Of a stretch of 45,172 bases of DNA, positions 19,408 through 44,938 are shown piece by piece. The notes beneath the pieces were generated by a model, which saw only the letters and a program-made list of their open reading frames with translations, was not told where the DNA came from and searched no databases. Within the stretch, counting starts at the first letter, position 1. The number at the start of each line of letters is the position of its first letter. Both the position numbers and the translations under genes were made by a program. The DNA is from a virus. Location of the stretch: the IMG/VR virus record IMGVR_UViG_3300009285_000020, positions 1 through 45,172 of that record. One strand, given 5' to 3'.

Positions 19408-20310
19408 TTAGCTGTTGCCGAAGCGGACGCCTTCCCAACGAAGGACGGCGCCCACACCACGCCGATAGACCACGATGCTCTTCTGAAGCGTTCGGTCGGC
19501 AGGAAGATTGACTACCTTCACACCGCCCCAGTCGATCCAGCGAACGCCGTGCTCGTCCTCATCCGCATTTTGAAGCGCCCACATGGTTGTGGAAGTCATG
19601 TATGGGTTTCGACAAGCCGTGACGTATCGGCCCGCGAAGTTCGGATCGTTGTCCGGGCTCTCGGCAAGGCCGGAAGCATCGAGAACCCTCGTCACTTGCG
19701 GAAACAGGGTGTTGCCTATGTGAATCTTGACGTTGCCTTCCTGCTCAAGCGTCTCGCCTCTCGGGTCCAGAAGGTCCCAATGCGCAGCAAGCTCTTCCTC
19801 AAGCGTGATAGAACCAAACGTCTTTAAGGTCGAAGGGCGGTTGGCCCGTGTCGCTACACCCGTAGCGGACGTGTGCGCCGTCGAAGCGAACACCTGCCCG
19901 TCATAGATGGTGTAACCGGAAGTGAACGCTTTGTTCAGAACTTCCGCCACTTCCTTGTTCACGGTCCGCATGGCGGCGATCATCGCATCCTTGGAGATGT
20001 TTCCGATCTCGCCGTACATGTCGTCCTCTTCCGCGTCGATGTCCCAAACGTATGCCTTCGCAAAACGAATGGGCCAATAGTTCGTGTCGTAGAGCTTCAG
20101 CTTCACGTCGGACGGCACGTTAGACCCCGGAGACGTAGCCTCCAAGACTTTGAAGCCCGTCGAGATGACGTTTCGGTAGTAGCCCTCTTTGCTACCCGGC
20201 TTGATCGTGGGAGCGATCTTCGAGTAGTAATCTCGGCCCTTCTTCACCTGAATCTTCAGAACTCCGTCGATTCCGGCTTTGATGAGGCCCAAAGTGTGTT
20301 CAGAAATCAT
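19408..20310 (-). CDS. Major capsid protein, 300 aa
   Basis: Called from size, the AAAGGAG RBS, and position after the scaffold and decoration genes. The fold was not verifiable by eye. Confidence 0.7.
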   Translation of the reverse strand: MISEHTLGLIKAGIDGVLKIQVKKGRDYYSKIAPTIKPGSKEGYYRNVISTGFKVLEATSPGSNVPSDVKLKLYDTNYWPIRFAKAYVWDIDAEEDDMYGEIGNISKDAMIAAMRTVNKEVAEVLNKAFTSGYTIYDGQVFASTAHTSATGVATRANRPSTLKTFGSITLEEELAAHWDLLDPRGETLEQEGNVKIHIGNTLFPQVTRVLDASGLAESPDNDPNFAGRYVTACRNPYMTSTTMWALQNADEDEHGVRWIDWGGVKVVNLPADRTLQKSIVVYRRGVGAVLRWEGVRFGNS

Positions 20311-22297: not shown

Positions 22298-24010
22298 TTA
22301 GCCTTCTTGCCCCACCATGCCGCCATCGCCGCCCAACATGGGGAGAGAAAGAACTTCTCCCATTCCTCCTGCGAGGGCGTTTGCATACATCATCTCCTGT
22401 TGCTGCTGCTTCTCTTCGTCTATTGAAGGAAGCAGGGAATCCTTTTGGTTGAGTGTCAGCGTTTCCGTCGCGGCTCTAAGTAGCCCCGGAATCAAGTCGG
22501 GATACCGCTGAAGGATCGTCGGGTCCATCATCGCCAACGATTGCAAGCTCTGGGCCATCAGCGCCACTTGCTGCATCATCGCTTCTGGCGTGGCATTGAC
22601 GACTTCGCCCTGCGCCTCGTACCAATACGGCATATCGAAGTCTCGCTTCGTCAACCCTTGGGGAAGCGCGTCCGCATACCACGGGTACCAGTCCTCGAAA
22701 TGCTCGTACAGCAGATCGCCCACCACGTATTCCGCCATCTCGGAAAGCCCGAACCCCGCATTGAGCGTATCGGTGTCAACACCTGCGTCCTGGCCAGCCG
22801 CTACCCTATTGACTTCGGTTGCGGACCTTCGCCCCCCTGCAAGAGCTACACCAGAAGCATTGGCCGACATCTTGCCCGCAATGTCGGCGTCGTCCCTTGC
22901 CATCTGAATAAGGGACGGGAACGCGGCTAGATCCACCTGGCCTTGCGGGGTGAATACCTGCCCACCCCTCTCAATCGGATACACCATCGCGGGCTGAGCC
23001 TGGATTACGTCATCCGGCAGGCTCCAATTCTCAGCGAACATCGGCTTCATGGCCGTCCACATGGACAGCCACACCGTCAGGTTCCGCATATCGTTAGCAA
23101 AATACTGAGGGCCTAACAGATTCGCACCTCGGCACTTCTCCCGGTACCAGCGGTTGTACTCTTGATGCAGGAAAAAATCTACACATGGGCTCTTTCGATA
23201 TTTCCAAGGCTTGATAGAAAGAAGCTGCCTGTCATCCCAAGCATAATGGACAAGCCATAACTTCTCCTCCCCGTTGCCGTCAAAATCGAGAGTCGAATAG
23301 AGTTCGTAGTACCGGACCTTCTCAAACTTCCTGTCTGGGGAAGTACCACTTCGATCTTGAGCAATTCGTTCGTCAAGCTCGTCAGGCGTAGCTGAACCAG
23401 ATTCGATCTTGACTGATTCGTAGTATTCGCCAGATTCCTTCTTCTTGCGAATCTGGTCCACCGTCTGATCGGACAAATGCCCGTGCAAAACCGTCTGATC
23501 GAGAGTTGCAACGAACGTCGGGAACACAATGAAGTGAAGCGGATCAGCCGAGTCGATCTTGAGATACGGGTACCTAGTCCTGCCGTTAGGCCAAAACCCC
23601 GAAGGCATGTACGTAGCCCTAAGAACCGAATTGCCCCGCCTTTGCATCACATCGAGGCCCACCTGAATCTGCAAGGGATACTTAGCCTTCGCATAGTGAA
23701 GCTGCAAGGCTCTCTCGATCATGTCCGCTCTTTGCCCCGTAGGACCGCCTGAGCGCACGTTGACATAAGGATCGACCTTGGACAAGGGGCCAGCGATGAA
23801 AGCCGTCCCCATGTCGATCTTGGGGCCAACAACGGGGAAGTGGTACCAAGGAGCAGTCGGCCAAGGCTTTGCAAGGCTCTGGACTGGCCTGTTTGCCGCT
23901 GCATCGTCAATCTGACGCCATCTTTCAACCAACTCGCCTCTCGCATCCCGCGCCGTCTGGATCATGTCGCCAATCTTGGCGTTCCAATCCCTGCGGTCTT
24001 CCTCAGACAA
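22298..24010 (-). CDS. Portal protein, 570 aa
   Basis: Called from size and position downstream of the terminase. The start is TTG without a clear SD, so it is uncertain. Confidence 0.7.
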   Translation of the reverse strand: MSEEDRRDWNAKIGDMIQTARDARGELVERWRQIDDAAANRPVQSLAKPWPTAPWYHFPVVGPKIDMGTAFIAGPLSKVDPYVNVRSGGPTGQRADMIERALQLHYAKAKYPLQIQVGLDVMQRRGNSVLRATYMPSGFWPNGRTRYPYLKIDSADPLHFIVFPTFVATLDQTVLHGHLSDQTVDQIRKKKESGEYYESVKIESGSATPDELDERIAQDRSGTSPDRKFEKVRYYELYSTLDFDGNGEEKLWLVHYAWDDRQLLSIKPWKYRKSPCVDFFLHQEYNRWYREKCRGANLLGPQYFANDMRNLTVWLSMWTAMKPMFAENWSLPDDVIQAQPAMVYPIERGGQVFTPQGQVDLAAFPSLIQMARDDADIAGKMSANASGVALAGGRRSATEVNRVAAGQDAGVDTDTLNAGFGLSEMAEYVVGDLLYEHFEDWYPWYADALPQGLTKRDFDMPYWYEAQGEVVNATPEAMMQQVALMAQSLQSLAMMDPTILQRYPDLIPGLLRAATETLTLNQKDSLLPSIDEEKQQQQEMMYANALAGGMGEVLSLPMLGGDGGMVGQEG

Positions 24011-25102: not shown

Positions 25103-26962
25103 CTACGTTCTGGCGATTCGAGTCGCTTTCCCCTGCCCAAAGTGCATAATGTTCTTCCGAACTTCGACCAAAACACTCTGATGTGCGTCGTTGCAATTGT
25201 GAACGAGTATGCCATTTGCGAAGAACTCATGTTCACCATCAACCGTTAAGTCGTACACGTTCGCGGTCCCATCGGGTGAGACGCCCCGCACAACGTTTAC
25301 CGCAAGTACGGGTGCAACTTGCAGCGGAAGTCTCAAACGAGTTCCCGCAAACCGTACACGTTCTGTTGGCTCCAATCGGCCTTTGGCTGCGTTGGTGCCC
25401 TTGCCGACATCGCATGGAACAGTACCGAGCCGCATTTCCTTTGGCCTCATAGTCAATCCCGCAAAAATCGCAACGCCTGATCCGAGTAGGTTGTTTCCCG
25501 AACTTGCAGCGAAGCGCATGGACACGATGCCATTCAATTCCTTCTGTGGACCCATGCCACGCTTTTGCGGCATCACGAGCGGCAGCAATGCCCTTCTTCC
25601 CATTCGCGGACAATTTCTCAAAATGCCTGCCGCTGAGATGGTCGAACGGCGAAAGGCACTCAAGATTTTCAAGCCGGTTGTCTGCGCAATCTTCGTTTTT
25701 GTGGTGGACGTGGGACCCTTCTGGGATTGGCCCGTTCGATTTCTCCCAAACATAGCGGTGCAGATATTCGCGCCTGCCGTCCACGTAACCTTTGAAGTAG
25801 ATACGATCCGATCTGCGAGGCGAATCTGGATACCGAACGAATCGGCTTTCGCCAACCCATATTTCCTCTGCGCCAATTCTGCTTTTCTTGGGTCTTCCAC
25901 CAGGCATGATAAAAGCATACCAGATTGAATGGCATCAGCGCGACTAAACTCCCCGTCAGCGTGAACCAGGTGGTTTGCGGTAACGCGGACGGTTTTGCCG
26001 TTGGATGCCAATACTTTTAGTACTGGCGCATTGTTCGCTGTCTTGCCAGACCATGAAACGCGCCTTAGCCCCTTGCGAGTCCACACCCTGTCGCCAACGG
26101 CGACACGTTCGATTGGAACATCCCCGCGCTCCGTAGCAACCAGCGACCCCTGGGCGAGACAATGGCTAAACATGTTCTTTACGGGCTTCAAATACACCAT
26201 TCCTGGCCCTGCTTCGTCATGCGCCTTCGACGGTCTAAGGCAATACGCGCCCCTCATGCCTTCCACCAGCACCGGGCACCCTTGCTCGCAGTAGATTACC
26301 CTTTGCTCCCACTTCGCTTCGTGATCGCCCTCCTGAGAAACCCAATCGGATAGCGCCCAAACTACCGCATCCTCTCTTTGTGGCCAATTGTTCGATATCC
26401 GCTTGATCTTGAAACCGCTTTGCTTGGCAATCTCGTAGGCGGACCGGCCTTCCGATCCACTCTTTGTCATAACGGTCTCATCGCCTACGTGGATCAAGTC
26501 CTGCCAAAATGCGGGAAGGCGCTCCTGCAACTTCTGACGCACAATTGGAGCAAACGTGCCCATTGCCATATTGGTCATCGGAGCAAGCTCAAACAGGAAA
26601 TGAATCTGCCCCTTTGGGGTGATCTGCGCTACTACCACCGCTGGCCGCAAGGTCATGCCGCAATCCCAACCGACGTAATATGTAGACTTTGGAATTAAAG
26701 GTATCGGTTTCTTGCGAAATGCAATTGGCGCATGGCGCTCGTACACGAAGTCCCTGAACACCGGATCGCCTTCAGCAATTGTCTCGTCCATCTCCATTTC
26801 CCTCAGCCATTCCGAGAGCGGTACGCCCCGCATGGCCTTTGCTTTCCACGCTGCGCCCTCCGGCGTGGCAGGGTCCTTGGACGGGTCTGCCGAGTAGTGA
26901 AGCCTGACGACCCTGGCCCCTTCCTGGGTCATGTAGGCATCGCATCCGTGCGGGAAGCTCAC
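25103..26962 (-). CDS. terL: Terminase large subunit, nuclease-domain cistron, interrupted by an intein (297 aa after predicted splicing)
   Basis: The N-extein has ARVVRLHYSADPSKD...YYVGWDCGMTLRPAVVVAQI, an RNaseH-like nuclease motif. The extein junction is ...KNMFSH|CNDAHQSVLV. GTG 26962 is GTGA-coupled to the upstream ORF. Confidence 0.85.
   Translation of the reverse strand: MSFPHGCDAYMTQEGARVVRLHYSADPSKDPATPEGAAWKAKAMRGVPLSEWLREMEMDETIAEGDPVFRDFVYERHAPIAFRKKPIPLIPKSTYYVGWDCGMTLRPAVVVAQITPKGQIHFLFELAPMTNMAMGTFAPIVRQKLQERLPAFWQDLIHVGDETVMTKSGSEGRSAYEIAKQSGFKIKRISNNWPQREDAVVWALSDWVSQEGDHEAKWEQRVIYCEQGCPVLVEGMRGAYCLRPSKAHDEAGPGMVYLKPVKNMFSHCLAQGSLVATERGDVPIERVAVGDRVWTRKGLRRVSWSGKTANNAPVLKVLASNGKTVRVTANHLVHADGEFSRADAIQSGMLLSCLVEDPRKAELAQRKYGLAKADSFGIQIRLADRIVSTSKVTWTAGANICTAMFGRNRTGQSQKGPTSTTKTKIAQTTGLKILSAFRRSTISAAGILRNCPRMGRRALLPLVMPQKRGMGPQKELNGIVSMRFAASSGNNLLGSGVAIFAGLTMRPKEMRLGTVPCDVGKGTNAAKGRLEPTERVRFAGTRLRLPLQVAPVLAVNVVRGVSPDGTANVYDLTVDGEHEFFANGILVHNCNDAHQSVLVEVRKNIMHFGQGKATRIART
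25196..26161 (-). mobile_element. Hint-type intein (322 codons) in the terL nuclease domain
   Basis: Block A CLAQGSLVAT, block B VRVTANHLVH, blocks F/G VYDLTVDGEHEFFANGILVHN, then +1 Cys. Boundary codons were checked on the sequence (TGT at 26159..26161, AAT at 25196..25198, TGC at 25193..25195). Confidence 0.85.
25239..25907 (-). CDS. HNH homing-type endonuclease (222 aa), encoded inside the intein in a different frame
   Basis: YLHRYVWEKSNGPIPEGSHVHHKNEDCADNRLENLE is an HNH_3-like motif, followed by two Zn ribbons (CDFCG..YCSMRC; CTVCG..CGKRC). The ORF frame differs from the intein frame (end coordinates 25907 vs 26962 differ mod 3). Confidence 0.8.
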   Translation of the reverse strand: MPGGRPKKSRIGAEEIWVGESRFVRYPDSPRRSDRIYFKGYVDGRREYLHRYVWEKSNGPIPEGSHVHHKNEDCADNRLENLECLSPFDHLSGRHFEKLSANGKKGIAAARDAAKAWHGSTEGIEWHRVHALRCKFGKQPTRIRRCDFCGIDYEAKGNAARYCSMRCRQGHQRSQRPIGANRTCTVCGNSFETSAASCTRTCGKRCAGRLTRWDRERVRLNG

Positions 26963-27219
26963 GCCTGGATCACCTTGCTTCGCTCTATGTCGAGCAGCCC
27001 TTTGAAGCGCCCTGATAGATGTTTGAGGATTATCAAGAGGCCCTGCATTTCATCGAGCGGTTCTTCGACGGGGCTCTCAAGAGGACTCCCGTCAAGTCCG
27101 ATAATCCTTGTCCTCGAAGGAATGATCCCGGAAGTCTGGCTCCCGCCGATGTGATGCTGGACAACAACCACAACCCGGTCTTCAAACTGAACCGGCGTCT
27201 GAATCTGCTGGATAGCCAT
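26959..27219 (-). CDS. Cpn10/GroES-like small protein, 86 aa, wedged between the terL cistrons
   Basis: PVQFEDRVVVVVQHHIGGSQTSGIIPS...PLDEMQGLLIILKHLSG...LLDIERSKVIQA follows the GroES pattern (PLgDRVlV..kT.gGIvlP..PLdVkvGD.V.f.kyaG..lil.e.DIlavi). ATG 27219 follows GGGGGG. Confidence 0.5.
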   Translation of the reverse strand: MAIQQIQTPVQFEDRVVVVVQHHIGGSQTSGIIPSRTRIIGLDGSPLESPVEEPLDEMQGLLIILKHLSGRFKGLLDIERSKVIQA

Positions 27220-27955
27220 AAACCCCCCGCGCCTTTTCCTTGATTGCGATCCACTCCCGGTTTGCGCTCGCATTGGCAATCGCTACCGCGTGTCCTCCCT
27301 TCTCACCAGGAGGACCTTGGCAGACGATATTGGCTTGGCCCCAAACTGCCTTCACCCTCGCGTAAAGCGAAAGCTCCTCGCACTTGGCCCGCTTCGCGCC
27401 GCCGCCCTGAAACGAATCGCGGTCGGAGTTTACTGCAATGAACATGGCTCCGTTCGGGAACACCAACTTGTCTAACCCCTGCTTGGCCGTGTTGCCTTCG
27501 GTAATAGCGTTAGGCAATCCCCAAGCGGGAAACCGCTTCTGGATGTCGTCGTAGATGAACCAGGACCGCCATACGAAGTCCTTTGCGCCACCCTTGCCCT
27601 CGTACTCCCTGCCACCGTCCAAAATGTCTCCGGGCTCAATCCCTACGTCCCATACGTCTAGAGCGCACATGATCCAAGAGATGATGAGACGCCGAGACTT
27701 GAACACGATGAATGGCTCACCGCCCGACTTTGCCATCCACCAGTTCCAAACGAGGAACCTTACGTACTCCTTTTTGGGAATCGGAACGGCTTGCCCAGTC
27801 GTTTCAAGCCTCGTGCGAACGACCTCGGTGAGGAACCGATACGCGGCCTGCCAAGAATCTTCCCCGTAAGGCATCGGCCAAAGTGGGCCGCGACTCTTCT
27901 CGAACATCCGGCCAATGTCGCCCTGCAAAAGCTCAAGCAATGCGGCGGGCTTCAT
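27182..27955 (-). CDS. terL: Terminase large subunit, ATPase-domain cistron (257 aa)
   Basis: Deviant Walker-A-like FIVFKSRRLIISW (lambda gpA KSARVGYS type), Walker-B-like AKCEELSLY, and motif-III-like IVCQGPPG. The ORF ends at TGA 27182..27184 where the lid/linker would begin. Confidence 0.65.
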   Translation of the reverse strand: MKPAALLELLQGDIGRMFEKSRGPLWPMPYGEDSWQAAYRFLTEVVRTRLETTGQAVPIPKKEYVRFLVWNWWMAKSGGEPFIVFKSRRLIISWIMCALDVWDVGIEPGDILDGGREYEGKGGAKDFVWRSWFIYDDIQKRFPAWGLPNAITEGNTAKQGLDKLVFPNGAMFIAVNSDRDSFQGGGAKRAKCEELSLYARVKAVWGQANIVCQGPPGEKGGHAVAIANASANREWIAIKEKARGVYGYPADSDAGSV

Positions 27956-27991: not shown

Positions 27992-28291
27992 TCAATCTCT
28001 GACCCCCAATTGGAACGTGACGAATATCCGGCCCGGCCTGAGCACGCCTGTCATGCCTCGTAAATCACCCTCGTGCGCGTGCGTGCCTAATGTCAACCGA
28101 GCCCAACCATCTGAACCGATCCGCCCTGAGAGCCGAACCCCTGACACATCGCCTTCGACATCCCCGCCCCTGCCGACAACCATCCGGGCAGGCCAATTGC
28201 CCCAACGGCCCTCCCAGGACCCGGCATAAGGATTGACACCGCCGCCGCCGCAACCCGCGAGAACGAACACCAAAAGTAAAAGAACCCTCAT
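27992..28291 (-). CDS. Lipoprotein, 99 aa
   Basis: MRVLLLLVFVLAGC is a signal peptide with an LAGC lipobox. The ATG forms an ATGA overlap with the upstream stop. Confidence 0.7.
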   Translation of the reverse strand: MRVLLLLVFVLAGCGGGGVNPYAGSWEGRWGNWPARMVVGRGGDVEGDVSGVRLSGRIGSDGWARLTLGTHAHEGDLRGMTGVLRPGRIFVTFQLGVRD

Positions 28292-28518
28292 TCTCGCACT
28301 ACCTCTTCCCAATCGTCAGCATTTGTATTGTCGGAACCAAATCCGACAATACATATGCTGACGATTGGGCATGGCGACGTGTCGAACTTCAAAGCCCAAC
28401 CGCCTGCCGAGTCGTTGCGGAAGTCTGGCCGCCCCCAGTGGAAAATCCCGGAAACACCGTTTGGACGCCGTAAAAGAACCCCATCCGGGTATTTCAACAT
28501 GGCTTCGATAAGAGTCAT
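28288..28518 (-). CDS. DUF2829 (MW1434/Tad2-like) small protein, 76 aa
   Basis: The N-terminus MTLIEAMLKYPDGVLLRR and C-terminus TNADDWEEV match the DUF2829 end motifs (F.EAL.alk.Gk.v.R ... adDWeiv). This is the internal ATG of track ORF 28288..28698. Confidence 0.5.
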   Translation of the reverse strand: MTLIEAMLKYPDGVLLRRPNGVSGIFHWGRPDFRNDSAGGWALKFDTSPCPIVSICIVGFGSDNTNADDWEEVVRE

Positions 28519-28543: not shown

Positions 28544-29113
28544 TCATTTCGGCAGTGCCCCCGTTTCCTCCCAAACCCTGATTGACTCTTGCCAAATACC
28601 TTGAGAGAAATCCCCCCGGCGCTCCAATATCCGCCGAATCGCGGCAGGAGTCCGATAACGCCTTCGCATCTCTTGATCGTCGTCCTCCGGTACCCCACCC
28701 CGAACGAAACGGTACCCGCGTGCCAAACCGTCGGACATGATGTCCCACTCCGGATGCCCGGACTCCGCGCTCGGACGAACTACCGCCAAACCCGGTAACT
28801 GAGCCACCAAGCTCCCGTTCACATTGTGCGAAGGACCGTTCACATTTTGAGGCCCACCGTTCACATTTTCGTTCACATCTGCCGAAATGTGAACGGGCTC
28901 CTCCGAAATGTGAACAGGGATGTGAACGGTCTTCCCTAAATCTGGAGCCGCACCGTGAACATCCCTGATGACATTTCCCCACGCCGTTAACGATTTCCCG
29001 CCACGGGATACCGCCATTGCCAACGCAGACTTGCTCGCGCCTACGATCTTTGATGCCTGATCGTAACTTAAATTGAACTCAACTAATAGTGACTTGAACT
29101 CATTGCCATCCAT
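28544..29113 (-). CDS. HTH DNA-binding protein, 189 aa (small-terminase or initiator/regulator candidate)
   Basis: N-terminal HTH LSYDQASKIVGASKSALAMAVSRG. The middle is encoded by the GTTCACAT repeat array (TVHIPVHISEEPVHISADVNENVNGGPQNVNGPSHNVNG). The gene lies between an HNH and terL. M70 of track ORF 28544..29320. Confidence 0.7.
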   Translation of the reverse strand: MDGNEFKSLLVEFNLSYDQASKIVGASKSALAMAVSRGGKSLTAWGNVIRDVHGAAPDLGKTVHIPVHISEEPVHISADVNENVNGGPQNVNGPSHNVNGSLVAQLPGLAVVRPSAESGHPEWDIMSDGLARGYRFVRGGVPEDDDQEMRRRYRTPAAIRRILERRGDFSQGIWQESIRVWEETGALPK

Positions 29114-29160
29114 GTGTAACACCCATGTGATACAGTATAACACATGTGACCGTTCACATT
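28815..29160. repeat. Iteron-like array of CCGTTCACAT(T) / AATGTGAACGG (at least 9 sites)
   Basis: Forward copies start at 28815, 28836, 28857 and 28870. Reverse copies start at 28886, 28907 and 28919. A variant CCGTGAACAT is at 28953. The palindrome ATGTGA-CCGT-TCACAT is at 29144..29159. Spacing of 21 nt recurs. Confidence 0.9.
29134..29160 (-). promoter_or_regulatory. Candidate extended -10 promoter (TGT-TATACT) with overlapping operator palindrome, for gene 28544..29113
   Basis: The - strand reads AATGTGAACGGTCACATGTGTTATACT. The -10 is at 29134..29139, 20 nt upstream of ATG 29113. Confidence 0.45.
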
Positions 29161-29360
29161 GGGGATTTTTTGCAAAAAGGCCCGTGTGGTGGGACCCCCC
29201 CGCGCGCACCCCCAGCCGCCCTGGGCGAAGGCACCCGGCCCCCCTCCCTCGCGCGTGCGCGCACACGCTCAATCGAACCCGTTTGAACCTGGCGACGCCG
29301 TGGATGCCCCTGCAAGCCACGTACAGGCACTTTCAGAGCGTTTGAACCTGAGCCATGTCG

Positions 29361-29813
29361 TTAGAACCCTCTTTCGTTCCTTGCCACGAGCCTGCGCTCA
29401 CACGTTGCCCCACAGTAGATACGTCCATCATCCTTAGCAACCTTGCCGCAAGCCGGGCACCGGTGGGGGCCGATGGGAGCACCACGCTCATCTGTGGGAA
29501 CGGGCTCCTCTTCCTCGGGGTTTAGTTGCACAAACTCCAGTAACGACTCCCAGTCAATACATGCAAGCGGAGCTTCTGACAACTTGCACATACTATGGAA
29601 CCCTACGTGACACGATCGACACATGACGAACAGGTCTTCGTGACTCTCACAGGTGATGCGCTCGTAACTGTTATGGTGAACCACGAGGGCGCTCCTTGCA
29701 GCGCATGTCTGGCACCGATAGCCAGCCCGTGACAGCACGGCTTCCCTCAATTCGATAAAGTGAGAAGTCCTCAAATATGCGTCGTAAAGACGAGCCTTTT
29801 GAATGTCATCCAT
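29361..29813 (-). CDS. HNH-family / Zn-finger nuclease, 150 aa
   Basis: RAGYRCQTCAARSALVVHHNSYERI...LFVMCRSCHVGFH is HNH-like, and a C-terminal CPACG...CGATC forms a Zn ribbon. Confidence 0.7.
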   Translation of the reverse strand: MDDIQKARLYDAYLRTSHFIELREAVLSRAGYRCQTCAARSALVVHHNSYERITCESHEDLFVMCRSCHVGFHSMCKLSEAPLACIDWESLLEFVQLNPEEEEPVPTDERGAPIGPHRCPACGKVAKDDGRIYCGATCERRLVARNERGF

Positions 29814-29891: not shown

Positions 29892-30413
29892 CTACCCAGG
29901 TTCAGGTTCGAGGGAACCTGTGGACAGGGCGTCCGCTTCCTCGTGCCATCCGCCGGTAGCCGACTCTAGCTGAGCGGCTACCTGCTGGGCCATTGCCTCT
30001 AACCTGGCAGGCAGATCGGGCAGGTCCGAGAATACAAGGCTGGCAACGTGCAGAGCTAACCGTAACGCCATAGGGTCGTCGAGCTGCACCTTGGTGATCT
30101 GCTCTACCTTGCCGTAAAGCCGCTCAAGCAATCGATCGAGGAGCGCAGGATTGTGCCGAGCCCACGCCTCGAAAGCGGACTCCGTGACTTCCTCAACACG
30201 CTCCTTGAGTTTCCGCTCCGTTGCTGCATTGAGAGCGTCAAGAGCGGTCTTAGACTCCTTTTTAGCCTGCCGCATGGCTTTGGTGAATCCGGGTCCTGGT
30301 GTAGGGATGTGGCACCCGTTCGAGTCACCTGTATGGATCCTCCCGACTCCATGCGAGGGCACCCTCATACGTTCCGGGTGTTTTGCGGGTGATTCACTTC
30401 CTAGACTTGCCAT
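29892..30413 (-). CDS. Hypothetical protein, up to 173 aa (first gene of the late block)
   Basis: Track ORF. The SD is weak and alternative internal ATGs exist. The C-terminal two-thirds is helical. Confidence 0.5.
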   Translation of the reverse strand: MASLGSESPAKHPERMRVPSHGVGRIHTGDSNGCHIPTPGPGFTKAMRQAKKESKTALDALNAATERKLKERVEEVTESAFEAWARHNPALLDRLLERLYGKVEQITKVQLDDPMALRLALHVASLVFSDLPDLPARLEAMAQQVAAQLESATGGWHEEADALSTGSLEPEPG

Positions 30414-35663: not shown

Positions 35664-35846
35664 TTAGCTACCCGCGCTTGGATAGCTTCGAGCGCCGCGT
35701 TGATCTCGGTTTGCGGTGGCACACTCAGAACTTTGCAGGCATTCTTTCTGCACGTTCTTTAGCGGGGCCTGGGCAGCGATGGCGGCCTGGGCCTGCGCTC
35801 GGCTGATCGCCTTCGCCGCCATGATTGATTTGAGTTTCTTGTTCAT
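35664..35846 (-). CDS. Small ORF, 60 aa, probably frame-disrupted
   Basis: Track ORF with a GAGGAA RBS. Its 3' half looks non-protein-like, whereas an overlapping frame (35585..35758) reads RTCRKNACKVLSVPPQTEINAALEAIQARVAKQRARDVARGKAGKKQVCKTCGRLAFS. Confidence 0.4.
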   Translation of the reverse strand: MNKKLKSIMAAKAISRAQAQAAIAAQAPLKNVQKECLQSSECATANRDQRGARSYPSAGS

Positions 35847-35916
35847 GGGTTCCTCGCATTAAGAGTCTCTACATAGTAAGAGATAATTACTATCTTCTCG
35901 CGCGCACGCGCGCACG

Positions 35917-36096
35917 GCATACTTGGCCGCCGTGGTCAAGTATGGTGGCAGATTCAAAAATAACACTTTCGCGCCATACTTGACCAATTACACTGGATAA
36001 AGGAGAATGGTCAAGTATGCACATTCTGTCTACATGTTTGCCATACTTTGCCATACTTGACTTTTGGCTAAGTATGGTCAAGTATGGCAAAGTATG
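35917..36096. repeat. Iteron array of CCATACTTGACC / GGTCAAGTATGG (9 sites), ori or operator candidate
   Basis: Sites: 35917..35928 (variant), 35934..35945, 35974..35985, 36009..36020, 36041..36050 (variant), 36051..36061, 36067..36077 (partial), 36076..36087 and 36086..36096 (variant). The tandem copies are phased about 10 bp apart. Confidence 0.9.
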
Positions 36097-36107: not shown

Positions 36108-37937
36108 TCAATTTTCCATCCAAATCACGTCGGTACTGGGATCGTAAACCAATTCTCTATCCGCCGGCAAGAACCAGATCGCCTTGCTGTTCTTGCCAAA
36201 ACCGTCTCTGCTTTTCTCCCCATTTATCTCTTTCAGCGCCTTACACAGAACGTTGTACGAGATGCCCTTGCTGTCCCCAACGCGGGTGATGTCCTGAACA
36301 TACTTGGGGCCGTGGGCCAGGTATTCCTTCAGGAATATCTTGGCGACGTTCTTGAGACCCATCCTGGCGTCATAGGTGTCCTTCGCATCGAAAGGATTGT
36401 CGAAGGTGTGAACGTACTCGATCTGTTCTCCCATCCTGCAAAATGCGAAGGGGTCCGCCCTTGGCACAAGCAAGCTGCCCTTTTCGTCGGTGACAATCAC
36501 AAGGCCGCGTTCTGTCGGGTGGTAGCGCATCACCATCTGTCCCCGATGGGAATTGCGGAATTGCACCGAGCCGAATCCAAGCTCCGAGGCCGCTTTGCCG
36601 ACAATGCCTTTCGTCGTATGCCGAATGTTGTTGAACACGGCCTGGGTGTTGTGCCCAACGCGGGCAAGCCCGTGAAGGATCGGTAATACGGCGAGGGGGT
36701 CCTTCCATCCTTCCCGCGCCACGTGTCCACAAAAGTAGTAGAGCGCGTCAAACACGATATTCACAAACCCACCGTCCTTGATCTTGGCTTCCAATTCTTC
36801 GATGCCGTCGTCGTCAAGCATGAAGTCCGGGTCGTCTATGAACTCGATCATCGAAAGGTCGCCGCCGTTCGCCACATAGACCGTGGCGATCTCTTCGGAC
36901 ATATCCTCCCCTTTGTGAAAGTACAAGGTCCTTGTGGGTTCGCAAGCGCCGTCTCCATTGGGGAGTGTTCCGTGTGACAATCCAGCCGCAATCGCCGTCA
37001 GTAGACAAGTTTTAGAGGTGCCCCCGTCAGCGTCCCACAGGATGTTTTTGCCTCTCGCCAGTCTTGGCTCCCACAGGTAGCGAATGATGATTGGCTCAAA
37101 CGTCTCAGCGTTGAACACCTTTCCTTTCAACACCTTCGGGGGCGTCGATAGTGGAATTTCGACAAACTCACTTACGCTATGCCCTGCTTCTAGATGGTCG
37201 TAAGCGTCGTCCTTCTCGGCAGTCGTCGCGCTTTGCACTAACCGCACCGATGCGGCCACTGTCTTGATCTGCTTGGCGACATACCGTCCATAGACCAGCC
37301 CTACCGTATCCCTGTCAGCGATGATGACGGCGTTCGCGCCCTTTAGCGCGTCGGTATACAGAGGAAGCCACTTTGAACTAGGATTTGTGCCGTCGGCTCC
37401 CGCAGGCTGGCACGTTGCGGTAAACCCGACGGCACGCATTCTTTCGACAGCTTTTTCCCCTTCGCAAATATAGATAGGCTCTCCTGATTCGACTGCCTTC
37501 AAAACTTCCGGCAACCGATAAAGAACCTTGGATTTCGCTCCGAGAGCATCGGAAACTTTGCGGTTCGGCACTCCGTCTGGGCCAACGATCTGCTGGTAGA
37601 ACCCCTTTTCGCCATTCTTTTCAAACCGAACTTTCTCGAAAAGGTACTTGCCGTCAGCGTCTTGATATTTATAGACTGTCGGCAGCTTGAACGAACTGCG
37701 TCCATTCTTTTGAATGCGCCGGTCCTCTTGCGTAAGGCCTAGCGCCGCAAGAATGGCGTTCTCAGAACATCCGTTACTGATGCATTTGACATGGAGCCAC
37801 CCATCCGGCCCTTCCCATACTCCGAGCGAAGGTTTGGCGTCTTCGTGTGCTGGGCAAACTCCAATGTAGCCGTCGCAATTGCGGATTGTGTGTTTCTTCG
37901 CTTTGTCAAGCCGAGATGCAAACTCTTGGAGAGTCAT
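36108..37937 (-). CDS. Bifunctional DNA primase-helicase, 609 aa
   Basis: Zn finger GVCPAHEDAKPSL...HVKCISNGCS; Toprim YICEGEKAVERMRAVGFTATC...VIIADRDTVG; RepA/DnaB-like NTPase DADGGTSKTCLL and VFDALYYF. ATG 37937 is M62 of the track ORF. Confidence 0.85.
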   Translation of the reverse strand: MTLQEFASRLDKAKKHTIRNCDGYIGVCPAHEDAKPSLGVWEGPDGWLHVKCISNGCSENAILAALGLTQEDRRIQKNGRSSFKLPTVYKYQDADGKYLFEKVRFEKNGEKGFYQQIVGPDGVPNRKVSDALGAKSKVLYRLPEVLKAVESGEPIYICEGEKAVERMRAVGFTATCQPAGADGTNPSSKWLPLYTDALKGANAVIIADRDTVGLVYGRYVAKQIKTVAASVRLVQSATTAEKDDAYDHLEAGHSVSEFVEIPLSTPPKVLKGKVFNAETFEPIIIRYLWEPRLARGKNILWDADGGTSKTCLLTAIAAGLSHGTLPNGDGACEPTRTLYFHKGEDMSEEIATVYVANGGDLSMIEFIDDPDFMLDDDGIEELEAKIKDGGFVNIVFDALYYFCGHVAREGWKDPLAVLPILHGLARVGHNTQAVFNNIRHTTKGIVGKAASELGFGSVQFRNSHRGQMVMRYHPTERGLVIVTDEKGSLLVPRADPFAFCRMGEQIEYVHTFDNPFDAKDTYDARMGLKNVAKIFLKEYLAHGPKYVQDITRVGDSKGISYNVLCKALKEINGEKSRDGFGKNSKAIWFLPADRELVYDPSTDVIWMEN

Positions 37938-38107
37938 CTGGGCTTGATCCTTTTCGCCGCGTCGAGCGCATTGTCTAAATGGTTGTAGACATCTTCGGCG
38001 TGACCCGCATCTGGCCTGCCGTCTTGTTGGTAGAACTGCCAAGCGACAGCGCGGGCTGAAAGAATAAGCTGAATGAGCACAAGCCGCTCGTCGTGTTCGT
38101 CTGACAT
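37934..38107 (-). CDS. Hypothetical protein, 57 aa
   Basis: Hand translation gives MSDEHDERLVLIQLILSARAVAWQFYQQDGRPDAGHAEDVYNHLDNALDAAKRIKPR. GGAGGA lies 5 nt upstream, and there is an ATGA overlap with the primase start. Confidence 0.55.
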   Translation of the reverse strand: MSDEHDERLVLIQLILSARAVAWQFYQQDGRPDAGHAEDVYNHLDNALDAAKRIKPR

Positions 38108-38223
38108 CCGTATCCTCCACAGATAGAATTGCAGGGCCGTCTTCGCCGTCTGTGGGCGGACGACCTCGCGAAAAGTCTCCCGGCTACGGACGGCCCTCGA
38201 AGCATCCTATTGTACCCCAACCC

Positions 38224-38442
38224 TCACCCCGCATCGCCACTCTTCGACAACCCCGAAGAGTTCATTTCCCACGCATACGCGACCACCGCCAACGCCGAAA
38301 ACATGTGCCCGCTGATACCCCACAAAGGCCCCGGAACAGTCCGCTGACGCATTTTCAGGGGTTGGCCCCTCTTCCCGGTTGGAACGTAGGTTTCCTTGCT
38401 GGAAACGGGACCAAATCGGTCCAACAGGGCAGCGCGTATCAT
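38224..38442 (-). pseudogene. Orphan, diverged copy of a RuvC-like C-terminus (72 codons)
   Basis: IRAALLDRFGP...VPGPLWGISGHMFSALAVVAYAWE aligns with VRASILDRFGG...TPGPLYGVHGHMWSALAVAIYAME of 38971..39429. ATGA overlap with the HNH stop. Confidence 0.65.
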
Positions 38443-38981
38443 AATGCCGCCTTCATGTATCTTGCAATAGCTTCTATCTCAGCAAGCGTGGCGTCTGACT
38501 TGATCCGATTTGCTCTCCATGAGATCACACACACATTGCCTTTCACGTATCCTCGGCCTGGGTCTATTCTGTCAAGCGTCGGCGATCCATCGTGTTGGCG
38601 GCGTGTCGGGTCAGGCTGATACGACATTGGCGTTCCAAAAACCGGGCAAACAGTATGGACAACAATATCACTTTTTTCGAGACTAAATGGCACATTGTTG
38701 CATTTCGCCCTACGCTTCGCCAATCCAAAAATTATTCTTTCGGGGACTGTTCGGCGCTGTGCATTTTCCCTTGCGGTTGTGCGTGCGCGGACGCCTGGCC
38801 TGCGCATGTAGTCTTGTGCGTATTTGGTATAGTAATCTTTGTGGTTTTGGTAATGTGCTCTTGCGCGAGCGCATTCACAATCTTTACATGCTGCTTTGTG
38901 CCCATTTTTGCGGGCGCTTTGCTTGTGGAAGGATTCAAGTGGCTTAACGCGGTGGCATCGGCTACAGGTCTTAGTTGTCAT
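38439..38981 (-). CDS. HNH-family homing-type endonuclease, 180 aa
   Basis: N-terminal CSRC...CKDC Zn motif and C-terminal CPVFG...SPTLDRIDPGRGYVKGNVCVISWRANRIKSD. M132 of track ORF 38439..39374. Confidence 0.7.
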   Translation of the reverse strand: MTTKTCSRCHRVKPLESFHKQSARKNGHKAACKDCECARARAHYQNHKDYYTKYAQDYMRRPGVRARTTARENAQRRTVPERIIFGLAKRRAKCNNVPFSLEKSDIVVHTVCPVFGTPMSYQPDPTRRQHDGSPTLDRIDPGRGYVKGNVCVISWRANRIKSDATLAEIEAIARYMKAAL

Positions 38982-39429
38982 CGGAGTTCTCCATAGCGTA
39001 GATCGCAACAGCAAGCGCACTCCACATGTGTCCATGCACACCATAAAGCGGGCCCGGTGTTGCCTTTTTCCCAACAGCCGTGAGTTTACCCCCAAATCGG
39101 TCCAGAATACTTGCGCGGACATTCCCATCTTTGGCCCTCGAAGAGCCGCAGAAGTGCAGCTTGACCTTGGAGCGGTACACCGGCACGAACCGGTCTCCAA
39201 GAATCTCCATGAGCCGCCCGATGACGAACGCCGTCTCGAAGACCTCCTTCCCAACTGGCATCCCGAACGATTCCAGAAGTTCGACGGCGACGGGGCCGCG
39301 CCGCCATTGGTGCCGCGCTTCGTGCAACATTTCGACGGTCGGAAGCTCCGCCGCCCCAAGCACCGTCTCCCCATTCCAGAGCACGAACGCGGATAGGACT
39401 GGGCCAGGATCGAGGCCCACGAGGATCAT
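38971..39429 (-). CDS. RuvC-like Holliday junction resolvase, 152 aa
   Basis: MILVGLDPG (first catalytic Asp), VAVELLES, and GHMWSALAVAIYA. M8 of track ORF 38971..39450. Confidence 0.65.
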   Translation of the reverse strand: MILVGLDPGPVLSAFVLWNGETVLGAAELPTVEMLHEARHQWRRGPVAVELLESFGMPVGKEVFETAFVIGRLMEILGDRFVPVYRSKVKLHFCGSSRAKDGNVRASILDRFGGKLTAVGKKATPGPLYGVHGHMWSALAVAIYAMENSDDN

Positions 39430-39764
39430 TCCTCGTCCTCCGGCCTGCAAATATCACCCGGCTGCCAGTCTTGCGGCTGGGGCAGGTCTTCGGCGGGCGG
39501 TCCTCCCCACTGCTTTCTCAAATAATCATCTATTGTTTTTGTTTCGTGGCGACTTAAAACCCTTTTGGGTCTTACGGTGTACTGCGCAAGAATCCTGAAG
39601 TACGGTTCAGCGGGGCTAACTTCTTCCCCTGGTTCTGCAACTACCTTCGGCAGGCAGTCCTCGACGTAGATGCCCTCGCGCCAGAGCGCCAGAGTCTCTT
39701 CGTGAGTCACGTATCTTGCTCTCGTCACCTTCATGCCGACGGGCATCCCTTGTGGTTTCTTCAT
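39426..39764 (-). CDS. Hypothetical protein, 112 aa
   Basis: Track ORF with ATGA-type overlaps at both ends. Confidence 0.65.
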   Translation of the reverse strand: MKKPQGMPVGMKVTRARYVTHEETLALWREGIYVEDCLPKVVAEPGEEVSPAEPYFRILAQYTVRPKRVLSRHETKTIDDYLRKQWGGPPAEDLPQPQDWQPGDICRPEDEE

Positions 39765-40714
39765 AGCTTAACTCCTAAAGCCTTGTTTGTCTCGAAAAGG
39801 CTCCCTTTGTTGTAGCGAAAGGCCGTGAGAATCCCTTTGAAGGACGACCAGGCTTTCGGCAGGTCCCGTGCCATTCTCACAGTACACCCTTCTGGCTGGA
39901 CTAGGAGAACGAACGCGCCTAACGCTCTCGGCATCTTTACGCGCACCCCGGAAGCGATCCGGCCTTCGCGCCTGTGCCCGATCTTCTCGGCATAGTAGTA
40001 GGCGGCAAGCTGCTCTGCCATTCCGCCCCTGACGGCGCTGGAAGTCTTGGCGTCCCCTAACAGCCATCCATAGCCGAAGTTCCAGAAGCCATCCATCGTG
40101 CCCGCAACCTTCAACTTGTCGTGAAAGACCGGATGCTCGGCGAACTTGATCTTGGGATTGTGCGTGTGTAGGAAATGGTTTAGCGCAAGCGCATGGCCTA
40201 TCGTTTCGTCTTCGTCGCACAGGTATTCGTGCTCTTGAATCTGATCGGGAATCCAATACTTAATATCCTCTTGGGAAAACCGTTCTCCCACCTCCCAAGA
40301 TGGGAGCAAGAGATGGCAGCAGGAGCCTCGGTGCGCAGCCCTTGTAAGGAACCGCCTTCCCTCGTGCTTGAGCCATTCTTTGTCTTTCAAAAGCACTTCG
40401 GGGAGCACGTCTTTGTAGACTCGCTCCCATGCGCCGGTTTCCATATCTAAAGCCCAGCCGGTGTACTGTCTGTGGTATTCCAAAGGCTCTTTGGATTTGG
40501 CTTCTATCCGAGCCAAGTTCCGAATGAACATCGCCGTTAGCTCCGCAGCCTTTAGCGCCACCATATACGGCGACACTTCCGCGAACCCTGCCGCGAAGTG
40601 CGGCTTGAGAACCGAGGTCACCGAATCGAACTCTTTGACCCGGCCAGATGGGAGGGTCCATCTATATAAACCCTCCCCTGACCGGAGGTCCGTTCCTACG
40701 GACCAGGAACTCAT
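39761..40714 (-). CDS. PD-(D/E)XK exonuclease (YqaJ / lambda Exo-like), 317 aa
   Basis: VAGTMDGFW...WLLGDAKTS...AEQLAAYYYA matches the D...(D/E)xK...QxxxY arrangement. M17 of track ORF 39761..40762. Confidence 0.7.
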   Translation of the reverse strand: MSSWSVGTDLRSGEGLYRWTLPSGRVKEFDSVTSVLKPHFAAGFAEVSPYMVALKAAELTAMFIRNLARIEAKSKEPLEYHRQYTGWALDMETGAWERVYKDVLPEVLLKDKEWLKHEGRRFLTRAAHRGSCCHLLLPSWEVGERFSQEDIKYWIPDQIQEHEYLCDEDETIGHALALNHFLHTHNPKIKFAEHPVFHDKLKVAGTMDGFWNFGYGWLLGDAKTSSAVRGGMAEQLAAYYYAEKIGHRREGRIASGVRVKMPRALGAFVLLVQPEGCTVRMARDLPKAWSSFKGILTAFRYNKGSLFETNKALGVKL

Positions 40715-40941
40715 GCTTTTCCCTTGATCTTGGCGAACTTGACGGCAAGGGCCTTCGCGCACGCTTTGAAGGCGAGCGCCCCTGGGCCTGCCAGGAGCGC
40801 GTCAATCTCTTCTTGCGTGGTCTCAGCCGTGATGAACGAGATGCCTTCGTGTACGTCGGCGGACTCGTAATTTCCGAGGTTCGCCTTGCGCGAAAGGTGG
40901 ATCGAATAAGTCAACACGGGCTTGTCCACACTAACTCTCAT
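40711..40941 (-). CDS. Hypothetical protein, 76 aa
   Basis: Internal ATG (M70) of track ORF 40711..41148, with an ATGA overlap to the exonuclease start. Confidence 0.5.
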   Translation of the reverse strand: MRVSVDKPVLTYSIHLSRKANLGNYESADVHEGISFITAETTQEEIDALLAGPGALAFKACAKALAVKFAKIKGKA

Positions 40942-41509
40942 CGAACGGATCGTATTCCGCTTCTTCCGCGTCTCCTTCGGGAGTGAACATCTCAACGCCG
41001 CTTGTGCCGCCGCCGCCGAAGTGCTCGTCGTGTTTAACGAACTGGATAGACCGCAGGCCGCAACCGACGTTCTTGGCCTTGGTATCGGGGTCCTCGCCGC
41101 CGTAGAAGCACACGATGACCTTGGCCCAATCGCCGGACGCCCACCCATCGCTTTCCGTGACAGGCTGCACCTGCGGGTTTACGACGGCGGGAGCAAAGTC
41201 GCCTTTGGCGTTCATGTACCAGTGGCCGGGATACTTCTCTTCCTTGTCACCGTCGAGAAGCGGGATGCCGTACTTGGCTCCTTTGGGGAACTTGGCTTCC
41301 GCCGCTGCCTTGATGCCGTCGCGTGCCGCAGCCAAGGACTGTTTGGGATCGGAACAGAACTTGTTGGCGGTTTTGGGGAAGAGAAGGACGGCAGAGTATT
41401 GGTCATTGCCGTCGCGGAGGCTTGCCCTGGGCTTGTAAATCCAAGCGTAAGACAGGCGAACTGGACCCACGAGGGTCCGATTGGTTTTCTTAGTTTCTTT
41501 GGTACTCAT
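40931..41509 (-). CDS. ssDNA-binding protein, T7 gp2.5-like (DUF2815-like), 192 aa
   Basis: VRLSYAWIYKPRA...YSAVLLFPK together with an acidic aromatic C-terminal tail EEAEYDPFDES. M22 of track ORF 40931..41572. The leader is CA-rich with no SD. Confidence 0.65.
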   Translation of the reverse strand: MSTKETKKTNRTLVGPVRLSYAWIYKPRASLRDGNDQYSAVLLFPKTANKFCSDPKQSLAAARDGIKAAAEAKFPKGAKYGIPLLDGDKEEKYPGHWYMNAKGDFAPAVVNPQVQPVTESDGWASGDWAKVIVCFYGGEDPDTKAKNVGCGLRSIQFVKHDEHFGGGGTSGVEMFTPEGDAEEAEYDPFDES

Positions 41510-41568
41510 TGTTTTGTGTTGTTTGTGAGGAACTGAGCATCCCCGTCGCTCCGGCTTATAGCCGGTCT

Positions 41569-41667
41569 TCACTCATCTTCCCAAGGGTCATCGTCGGGGA
41601 GGTTCGCAGGCACGTAGCCTTCGGCCTCGCAACTTGTGTCTTCCCAGTCGTCGTTCATCCGATTCAT
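41569..41667 (-). CDS. 32-aa highly acidic peptide
   Basis: Hand translation gives MNRMNDDWEDTSCEAEGYVPANLPDDDPWEDE. AAGGAGA RBS upstream, and an ATGA overlap with the HTH gene stop. Confidence 0.4.
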   Translation of the reverse strand: MNRMNDDWEDTSCEAEGYVPANLPDDDPWEDE

Positions 41668-44031: not shown

Positions 44032-44211
44032 ATGACCGACGCCGAACGCCTGGCATTCCTGTACGGCTTCCCGCCGGAACCCTCCTGGTGGGATCGGCAC
44101 GGCGTCAAGGTGGCGGCTTTGGCCGTCGCCCTCGCCATTCTCGTAACGATCTACGGGCAGGAGACAGCTTCCTGGCTCGTGGACATCCTTTGGAGCAAGC
44201 ATAATGTGTAA
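44032..44211 (+). CDS. Small membrane protein, 59 aa
   Basis: Hand translation gives [76 protein letters not shown] upstream. It overlaps the next start. Confidence 0.5.
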   Translation: MTDAERLAFLYGFPPEPSWWDRHGVKVAALAVALAILVTIYGQETASWLVDILWSKHNV

Positions 44212-44938
44212 TTTTTTGTCGGCACTCATATTCGGGCCGAAGCTCGAACTCAAATTCGGCAGGTTCTACTCAGACCCATTAACGACCAATTCGCACACCG
44301 ACCTTGAGGTCAAACTTGGCCTTGTAGACCGTCACGCCGATCCTGAGTGGGCCAAGGTCGAATACACGCCTGGGCCAGAGAAAGGTCTGGCGGATTTCGA
44401 CGGCTATGTATTCAAGATAGACGAGACCATCACCCCCGACTGGCTGTCCGAGGACCTGATCGAGGAGTTTAAGGTCTACGCTAAGGCAAAGCTCGCGGAT
44501 ATCATCATCACGTCAGGCACCCACGACCTGATTGACACACCAAAGAAGGCGATCTGTGGCTCGGCGAGGATCGGCTCCGTCTGCGGCTCGGCGAGGATCG
44601 GCTCCGTCTTGGACTCGGCGAGGATCGGCTCCGTCTTGGACTCGGCGAGGATCGGCTCCGTCTTGGACTCGGCGAACATCGACTCCGTCTACGGCTCGGC
44701 GAACATCGACTCCGTCTGCGGCTCGGCGAGGATCGGCTCCGTCTTGGACTCGGCGAACATCGGCTCCGTCTACGGCTCGGCGATAGTGATTATCACGGAT
44801 GGATCGCCGGCGTTCAAATTGCGGGAGGGTTGTAGCGCCCTGGTGGTTGACCGGCGCACGAACCCGCAAACGATCTACGGCGAGTTTCAAGCGTTCATGA
44901 AACCGAAGCGTGTAAAGAAGGAGGAATCCAATGCCTGA
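44204..44938 (+). CDS. Nonapeptide-repeat (beta-solenoid-like) protein, 244 aa
   Basis: Track ORF. The central region has 8.4 copies of GSA(R/N)I(G/D)SV(C/L/Y). Confidence 0.75.
44558..44784 (+). repeat. 27-bp in-frame tandem repeat, about 8.4 near-identical copies
   Basis: The unit ggctcggcgaggatcggctccgtctgc repeats head-to-tail from 44558. Variants are confined to a few positions. Confidence 0.95.

Follow-up and report, generated by a model that had tools for sequence, protein, structure and literature searches.

A motif array within the gene for a helix-turn-helix protein of a phage packaging module, and its possible role as a packaging landmark

A dense motif array lies within gene X

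The locus described here is part of a viral sequence of 45,172 nucleotides (nt; IMG/VR record IMGVR_UViG_3300009285_000020, positions 1 to 45,172; hereafter, the window). It comprises a minus-strand gene at 28544..29113 (hereafter, gene X), encoding a protein of 189 amino acids (aa), and a dense array of a short DNA motif at 28815–29160, which occupies part of the gene and the DNA just before it. Protein X consists of an Xre-type helix-turn-helix (HTH) domain (residues 1–53), a disordered linker of 45 residues (~56–100) and a C-terminal domain (hereafter, C-domain; ~100–189), and its start codon is backed by alignment to a relative, P0002.

All motif copies named in a first-pass annotation of this DNA were present when the window sequence was read again. 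On the plus strand, exact copies of CCGTTCACAT are found at 28815, 28836 and 28857, together with a one-mismatch copy (TCGTTCACAT) at 28869–28878. The minus strand carries exact copies at 28887–28896 and 28920–28929 and a one-mismatch copy (CTGTTCACAT) at 28908–28917. A degenerate eighth in-gene copy on the plus strand (CCGTGAACAT, 28951–28960) matches the forward motif at 8/10 positions, and a further exact copy lies upstream of gene X at 29150–29159. The centre-to-centre spacings of the window array are 33, 12, 21, 18, 12, 21 and 21 bp, and part of the array resembles a tandem repeat with a 21-bp period. Over both strands of the 45,172-nt window, the 8-mer GTTCACAT occurs nine times, with eight of these occurrences within 28817–29159; the maximum count per 400-bp window in 20 dinucleotide-preserving shuffles was 3–4, compared with the eight observed. 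The motif is essentially confined to the X locus (one other GTTCACAT in the genome), and it thus marks a unique site and not a regulon.

The in-gene copies all fall within codons 52–100 of the open reading frame (ORF) at 28544..29113 on the minus strand, and the unusual peptide stretch quoted in the first-pass annotation, TVHIPVHISEEPVHISADVNENVNGGPQNVNGPSHNVNG, was confirmed. In gene sense, the first four copies read (C)CGTTCACAT and encode VHI, except that the first, degenerate one encodes VHG, and the remaining four read ATGTGAACGG and specify NVNG or VNE. The four-copy plus-strand block (28815..28878) accordingly reads ATGTGAACGG in gene sense and encodes NVNG, and the three-copy minus-strand block (28887..28929) encodes (P)VHI. 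The same motif in its two orientations thus gives rise to unrelated peptides, VHI versus NVNG.

The domain structure of protein X was modelled with AlphaFold2 using the family alignment. Residues 1–53 form a four-helix domain with a predicted local distance difference test score (pLDDT) of ~95, residues 56–88 are disordered (pLDDT <50), and the C-domain is a small beta-plus-helix fold predicted with moderate confidence (pLDDT 60–83, about 75). The top Foldseek matches of the N-domain were SinR, HipB, C-proteins, P22 c2 and phage Cro/C1, with template modelling scores of ~0.5–0.75 on the target and probabilities of up to 1.0, and with E-values of only 0.04–1 for this short domain. Searches of X against Pfam and PHROGs gave no match at E ≤ 0.1, including none to Pfam HTH_3. 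Comparison of the C-domain with the PDB by sequence profile, and Foldseek of the C-domain model, returned noise only, and no structure of a small terminase (TerS) was among the Foldseek matches of X in the PDB or BFVD.

A rare protein family with lineage-specific arrays

Apart from X itself, a word-indexed search across 5.8 billion proteins detected a single relative, P0002, which is 49% identical. A full HMMER search with a two-sequence profile against 1.84 billion cluster representatives recovered 19 proteins with 30–50% identity. Members of the X family are 124–243 aa long; one match of 1,460 aa, restricted to the HTH region, was left out. A tblastn search of X against 50,697 GenBank phage records returned nothing, no X relatives were detected when IMG/VR (twice) and the GTDB genomes were scanned by pattern, and a pattern-based metagenome scan yielded one truncated X locus (L006). 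Given that the GenBank phage, IMG/VR and GTDB scans gave no relatives, the X family is rare and so far confined to metagenomes. Its members have in common an HTH at the N terminus, a linker that varies greatly and a conserved C-domain with the consensus AE-GHPE(W/F)DIM-DG-ARG(F/Y)PGD...MR..YRT..A.RRI.E, and the linkers of the relatives are rich in short peptide repeats (SVTK, VAK, VTT, DAK and GVQ).

We read the DNA of 12 independent relatives (L001, L006, L007, L009, L011, L012, L013, L014, L016, L017, L018 and L019). In 12/12 of them the X gene holds its own 7–10-bp word, distinct from that of the window and repeated 4–13 times. The array motifs are TGCAAACG in L001, GTAACCGA in L006, CCGGTGTCA in L007, AAGGGTACAA in both L009 and L011, GCGTGACAAA in both L012 and L018, CCGGTCACA in L013, TTGTACAA in L014, CGGATGCAA in L016, CGGTAACAA in L017 and CCGACACC in L019. 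Related proteins have related words, as seen for the window (TGTGAACG) and L001 (TGCAAACG), and for the pairs L012 and L018 and L009 and L011, which each share one motif. The arrays are located in the linker-coding part of the gene, ~+120 to +340 from the ATG, except in L019, whose array is placed in an N-terminal extension.

The in-gene copies occupy two or all three reading frames across the relatives (all three in L009, L011, L012 and L006). Both motif orientations occur in the window, L006, L007, L012, L013 and L017, and most relatives have direct arrays rather than convergent ones. The spread over frames, the use of both orientations and the presence of non-coding copies (see below) indicate selection on the DNA word and not on the peptide. 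The first-pass annotation had linked the array, as a feature of the DNA, to the HTH protein and had named covariation of motif and HTH in relatives as informative; the relatives bear this out, with the architecture kept and the motif changed.

The arrays also differ between close relatives. The proteins flanking X in L009 and L011 are 100% identical and the X genes 88% identical, and the AAGGGTACAA array has 10 in-gene copies in L009 (476–630) and 11 in L011 (691–866). This difference of one unit despite identical neighbours indicates that the arrays turn over fast. Spacings between copies of the same locus peak at 11–12 bp (14 cases), 21–22 bp (16 cases) and 30–33 bp (10 cases).

Operator-like sites at the putative promoter of gene X

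An extended −10-like element (TGTTATACT, TGnTATACT) lies at 29142..29134 on the minus strand, 20 nt before the X ATG at 29113. This match to the consensus was the core of a promoter proposed in the first-pass annotation and is present; the promoter is nevertheless not listed by a two-hexamer scan, and its −35 element is poor. Just upstream of the −10-like element is a putative operator, ATGTGA-CCGT-TCACAT (29144..29159), made up of the full motif copy at 29150–29159 and an inverted half-site. It had been described as a perfect palindrome, which holds for the 6-bp arms (ATGTGA/TCACAT) but not for the 4-bp spacer, CCGT. An extra half-site, ATGTGA (29125–29130), is found between the −10-like element and the X start codon.

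An out-of-frame ATG (29126–29124, minus strand) is also present in this region, 7 nt after TATACT, which is the spacing used by X in the relatives. It opens an 8-codon ORF (MGVTHGWQ, then a stop) overlapping the start of X, which begins 13 nt further on. It is not a sequencing error, because three other samples (L003–L005) carry the very same sequence.

In L001, L009, L011, L012, L013, L014, L016 and L019, a −10-like hexamer ends 5–7 nt before the X ATG, and the same holds for L007 if the third ATG is the true X start. The hexamers across the X loci are TATAAT, TATACT, TACAAT, TACACT, TAAAGT and TATGAT, all of them consensus matches only. L018 is the exception, with a GGAG Shine-Dalgarno sequence before X rather than a −10-like hexamer. 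This pattern suggests a dedicated X promoter and a leaderless or near-leaderless mRNA. Promoter-proximal, non-coding motif copies are located 5–49 bp before the ATG in the window, L001, L007, L009, L011, L014, L016 and L019. They are mostly inverted repeats, as expected for HTH dimers, with one direct copy at −25 in L019, and they look like an operator for predicted autoregulation of X. L012 and L013 have zero copies upstream of the ATG and large in-gene arrays.

As for other elements before gene X, G/C-rich runs with T-runs after them are found repeatedly across the loci, and folding energies of candidate hairpins or intrinsic terminators there were no better than those of shuffles (z −0.8 to +0.6). 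The intergenic DNA between the HNH endonuclease gene that precedes X in the window and X itself holds two direct copies of CGTTTGAACCTG (29280–29291 and 29339–29350), 59 bp apart. A block reading GCCTGTACGTGGC in gene sense (29316–29328) is kept upstream of X in L001, L009 and L011, with proteins that are only 28–50% identical, and may be another cis-acting site, for example a cos/pac cut site, a TerS site or an RNA element.

Gene X is a third gene of the packaging module

Recognisable TerS genes precede X in four loci. They match PF20901 Sf6_terminase just upstream of X in L012 (E = 7e-16), PF03592 Terminase_2 upstream of X in L013 (E = 8e-39, with one 90-aa ORF between), the TerS family phrog_4102 just upstream in L016 (E = 5e-9), and PF03592 just upstream in L018, and thus represent three unrelated families. 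The large terminase (TerL) is encoded downstream of X in the window, L009 (phrog_5989, E = 6e-24), L014, L016 and L018. The gene order in L016 is terS-X-terL, with TerL directly after X as a single ORF, and in L018 an SU10-type portal follows TerL. The array lies between terS, or a gene at the terS position, and terL in the window, L016, L018, L009 and L014. The canonical TerS that is also present beside X indicates that X is not a canonical TerS, but a third conserved gene of the packaging module.

In the window and in L001, the terS position is taken by genes for homologous proteins, of 173 aa (29892..30413, minus strand) and 162 aa (L001 2135–2623), respectively. The 173-aa protein was not supported as a TerS by Pfam at E ≤ 10, by a search for homologues or by hhalign comparison with the TerS proteins of L013 and L016. 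The HNH endonuclease gene (29361..29813, minus strand) separates the 173-aa gene from X. Its absence from the corresponding place in L001 makes it look like a mobile insertion rather than a fixed component of packaging. The first-pass annotation had given the order as HNH, X, terL. The terL gene is indeed downstream, but it does not flank X directly, as two small ORFs (28288–28518 and 27992–28312) lie between.

The large terminase of the window (25103..27955, minus strand) consists of an ATPase ORF (27182–27955, 257 aa) and a nuclease ORF (25103–26962, 619 aa), which together are colinear with the single TerL ORF of L016. The two parts are ~220 nt apart with a 106-aa ORF in another frame between them, and the TerL of L014 is split into overlapping frames; in the window, the two ORFs could result from a frameshift or an intron, or TerL may truly be split. 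The nuclease ORF has a Hint/intein insertion just before its C-terminal CNDA motif. The small ORF 27992–28312 (minus strand), between X and TerL, has a lipoprotein-type signal (MRVLLLLVFVLAGC) and a homologue downstream of X in L001 (4519–4860). It also has a weak match to Rz-like spanins (E = 0.037), which recalls the T7 order of gene 18, spanin genes and gene 19.

The first 77 nt of the window are exactly repeated at 45096–45172, indicating that the window represents a whole phage genome of 45,095 bp assembled as a circle, and owing to this overlap the genome termini are not readable from the assembly. JGI samples 3300025087, 3300025154 and 3300025012 contain the same phage. Two independent assemblies, L019 (Logan ERR3094280, 24.8 kb) and L020 (ENA ERZ27247774, 9.5 kb), share an end 98 bp upstream of X, and the ends of several further contigs lie 14–305 bp upstream of it. 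The shared G-rich end of L019 and L020 is a weak hint of a true genome terminus.

Comparison with known systems

Iteron-plasmid Rep proteins (pPS10, F, P1 and R6K) and ParR/parC-type centromeres use direct repeats ~11 or 22 bp apart, on which many copies of one protein are bound. The X locus resembles them in its phased repeats and in the inverted repeat of the same word at the promoter. Their arrays are intergenic, however, and are bound by winged-helix Rep or ribbon-helix-helix ParR proteins, in a context of replication or partition genes that is absent around X. At lambda cosB, oriented sites beside the terminase genes are bent with the architectural accessory protein IHF to position terminase. 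There, in contrast to X, the accessory protein is the host IHF, and the sites are intergenic and bound by the TerS (gpNu1) itself.

The pac site of phage P1 spans ~160 bp inside pacA and has seven hexamers, four and three flanking the cut site, as well as an IHF site (PMC10028697). It is similar to the window in being located within the DNA-recognition gene of the packaging module, and in the window four copies face three to four. The P1 hexamers differ from the X motif in that they are Dam sites under methylation control. PacA itself serves as the recognition subunit of terminase, whereas X is unrelated to PacA in sequence and occurs with a separate canonical TerS. In SPP1, the pac region (pacL-pacC-pacR) overlaps both the promoters and the 5′ coding part of gene 1, and the terminase acts as its own repressor (PMC6316719). 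As at the X locus, the site extends over its own promoter and coding region, and the SPP1 binder also initiates packaging (PMC6316719). That binder, unlike X, is the TerS G1P itself (Terminase_2), with sites in the part of the gene coding for the DNA-binding domain; in the X family a Terminase_2 TerS stands beside X (L013 and L018), and the array is within X, mostly in the linker-coding part.

Lambda O, as well as SPP1 gp38/oriL, has a site array in the middle of the gene, between the codons for the DNA-binding and C-terminal domains, as in X (PMC7466680, PMC6022878), and the number of iterons at ori-lambda varies between relatives (4 vs 6; PMC7466680). Lambda differs in the AT-rich tract required after the iterons and in the location of O in the replication module next to P, whereas X has an Xre-type HTH and lies between terS and terL without a conserved AT-rich neighbour. 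A TerS ring is reported to bind DNA in a sequence-independent manner, and several TerS show little sequence specificity (PMC4737164); such binding would leave room for an accessory specificity factor.

Proposed role and alternative explanations

We tentatively propose that X and its array form a DNA–protein landmark that marks the start of packaging, with X acting as an autoregulated and self-specifying architectural protein. X very probably binds the motif (ATGTGAACGG in this phage), as the covariation indicates. It is by far the most likely binder because the array always travels with X and the neighbouring TerS families are unrelated, and because X appears to be the only conserved DNA-binding protein at the locus. 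The inverted copies over the −10-like element probably serve as an operator, by which X would repress its own promoter and set its own level. With less assurance, the eight in-gene copies, mostly about one, two or three helical turns apart and placed in the tolerant codons of the disordered linker, might load many X subunits, joined by their C-domains, into a bent nucleoprotein complex. This complex would be the site where terminase starts packaging.

We favor a packaging landmark because the cassette keeps its place in the terS-terL module irrespective of the TerS family, and because the motif is unique to the locus. X would then be a third component, distinct from TerS, and a self-specifying counterpart of the architecture of lambda cosB/IHF, P1 pac and SPP1 pacL/pacR. 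In a broader and more doubtful form of this proposal, X and its array could be a portable packaging-specificity cassette, in which X writes a lineage-specific landing pad into its own linker codons and directs terminases with unrelated TerS.

Several points weigh against a packaging landmark. We know of no terminase that needs a third sequence-specific subunit, and the TerS proteins adjoining X look complete. X appears to have its own sigma-70-like promoter, often of the leaderless type and even directly after terS, a feature more usual for regulators than for late packaging proteins, and the predicted Xre fold is typical of transcription factors. TerL was not found within 1.8–1.9 kb downstream of X in L007 and L012. 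The helical phasing is imperfect, given a frequent spacing class of 15–18 bp (13 cases), and the shared end of L019 and L020 could be a reproducible assembly break at a G-run.

As the main alternative, the locus may be a purely regulatory device, in which X is an autorepressor and the in-gene array provides auxiliary looping operators, a roadblock to RNA polymerase or decoys. Such a device would set X levels and gate transcription from the terS or X promoter into terL and the structural genes, with no direct role in packaging. The Xre/Cro/SinR/C-protein fold of the N-domain fits this explanation, as do the limitation of the motif to one locus, the position of X at the head of a transcription unit containing terL in the window and L016, and the leaderless −10/ATG arrangement of most loci, an arrangement also found for lambda cI transcribed from PRM. 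It also agrees with the promoter-proximal sites, mostly inverted repeats, that overlap the −10-like element in the window, L001, L007, L009, L011, L014, L016 and L019. However, 6–13 sites are far above the number in known autoregulators, and the large in-gene arrays of L012 and L013 come without copies upstream of the ATG. A late-operon regulator would moreover be expected upstream of terS and not between terS and terL, and the scanned ORFs of the window show no lysogeny module that needs a maintenance repressor. On balance, we regard a purely regulatory device as somewhat less likely than a packaging landmark. The first-pass annotation had considered a replication origin equally possible, in which X, as an initiator of the lambda O/ori-lambda or SPP1 gp38/oriL type, would bind iterons within its own gene, melt the DNA and recruit primase/helicase, with the inverted repeat at the promoter autoregulating the X gene as in iteron plasmids. 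Iterons within the coding DNA of the gene itself are indeed a feature of the lambda O type, and an iteron inverted repeat at the promoter is classic of iteron Rep genes. The most AT-rich 60-mer of the window (29046–29105, 67% A+T) falls in the interval that separates the array from the operator, and SPP1 oriR is an origin sited among late genes (PMC6316719). This explanation is nonetheless weakened and now quite unlikely, given that X is in the packaging module at every locus and never beside replication genes, that the T7-like replication genes of the window are 7–12 kb away (36–41.6 kb), and that a separate iteron cluster abuts the primase/helicase gene. AT-richness beside the arrays is not conserved among the relatives, which leaves no conserved unwinding element, and GC skew shows no switch at the X locus, its profile following the direction of transcription only.

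The first-pass annotation had favored X as the small terminase and the array as its pac site, which we now consider very unlikely. X does resemble a TerS in its succession of N-terminal HTH, linker and C-terminal domain and in being encoded upstream of terL; the window has no recognisable TerS, its 173-aa neighbor lacking a TerS signature; and 6–13 sites are similar to the subunit number of TerS rings. Against this, X matches no TerS family in Pfam or PHROGs and no TerS structure by Foldseek, and L012, L013, L016 and L018, with a recognisable TerS upstream, would carry two small terminases. The TerS fold, with a DNA-binding domain, a helical oligomerisation core and a C-terminal beta-barrel, is also not seen in the X model, in which the C-domain has a pLDDT of ~75. 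A packaging role is still the best guess, because X lies consistently within the terS-terL module, but it would be that of a third component. Lastly, the repeats might only reflect selection for a repetitive peptide or neutral tandem duplication within the linker, in line with the 21-bp tandem-repeat character of part of the window array, the short peptide repeats (SVTK, VAK and DAK) in the linkers of relatives and the different copy numbers of L009 and L011. This is highly improbable and effectively refuted by the frame and orientation data, since opposite orientations yield unrelated peptides and all three reading frames are used in L009, L011, L012 and L006. In addition, non-coding promoter copies occur in eight loci, including the window, and the conserved unit is a DNA word of 8–10 bp rather than a 21-bp period.

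Other features of the genome

From ~30.4 kb downward, the minus strand of the window encodes the 173-aa protein, the HNH endonuclease, X, the two small ORFs (one lipoprotein-like) and the large terminase, followed by a Cpn10-like gene, an SU10-type portal (22298–24010), a capsid protein (19408–20310) and tail genes. The T7-like replication set includes a primase/helicase (36108–38120, minus strand), an endonuclease VII-like protein (38439–39374, minus strand), an exonuclease (39761–40762) and a gp2.5-like single-stranded DNA-binding protein (40931–41572). Among the scanned ORFs of the complete genome, many of them small and without assignment, there were no matches to integrase, ParA/partition or immunity-module proteins. 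A role of X as a lysogeny repressor or in partition is unlikely, given no integrase, ParA or immunity-module matches in these ORFs.

The iteron-like cluster at 35915–36096 has ~10 copies of GGTCAAGTATG in both orientations, is intergenic and abuts the 3′ end of the primase/helicase gene, with an AT-rich stretch (35836–35900) beside it. This cluster is a better candidate for the replication origin than the X array; it is plausibly an origin or the landing pad of another protein. Three HNH/endonuclease VII-type genes (29361–29813, minus strand; 704–1162, plus strand; 38439–39374, minus strand) and one intein are present in 45 kb. A 27-bp tandem repeat (8.4 copies, 89% matches) at 44558–44783 lies within the overlapping ORFs 44204–44938 (plus strand) and 44513–45115 (minus strand), and is probably a 9-residue protein repeat.

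Implications

Binding sites embedded in the gene of their own binder are already known from lambda O, SPP1 gp38, P1 PacA and SPP1 G1P. What is new here is the X protein family, including a C-domain without annotated relatives, the fixed place of X as a third gene between terS and terL, the systematic use of disordered-linker codons to carry the array, and the clear family-wide covariation of motif and putative binding protein.

How terminase recognises the viral genome is still unclear in most phages. If the packaging landmark is true, a bent nucleoprotein complex next to terS would be a testable answer for one phage group, and X would be a third, sequence-specific component of terminase of a kind not described so far. 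The X locus would also provide a compact specificity module, one protein and its sites in ~600 bp, with a possible use in directing or blocking packaging. Irrespective of what X does, its family defines a conserved C-terminal domain without known relatives, and its loci are a natural example of cis-acting sites hidden in the codons of a disordered linker, of HTH/site co-evolution and of rapid change in array copy number.

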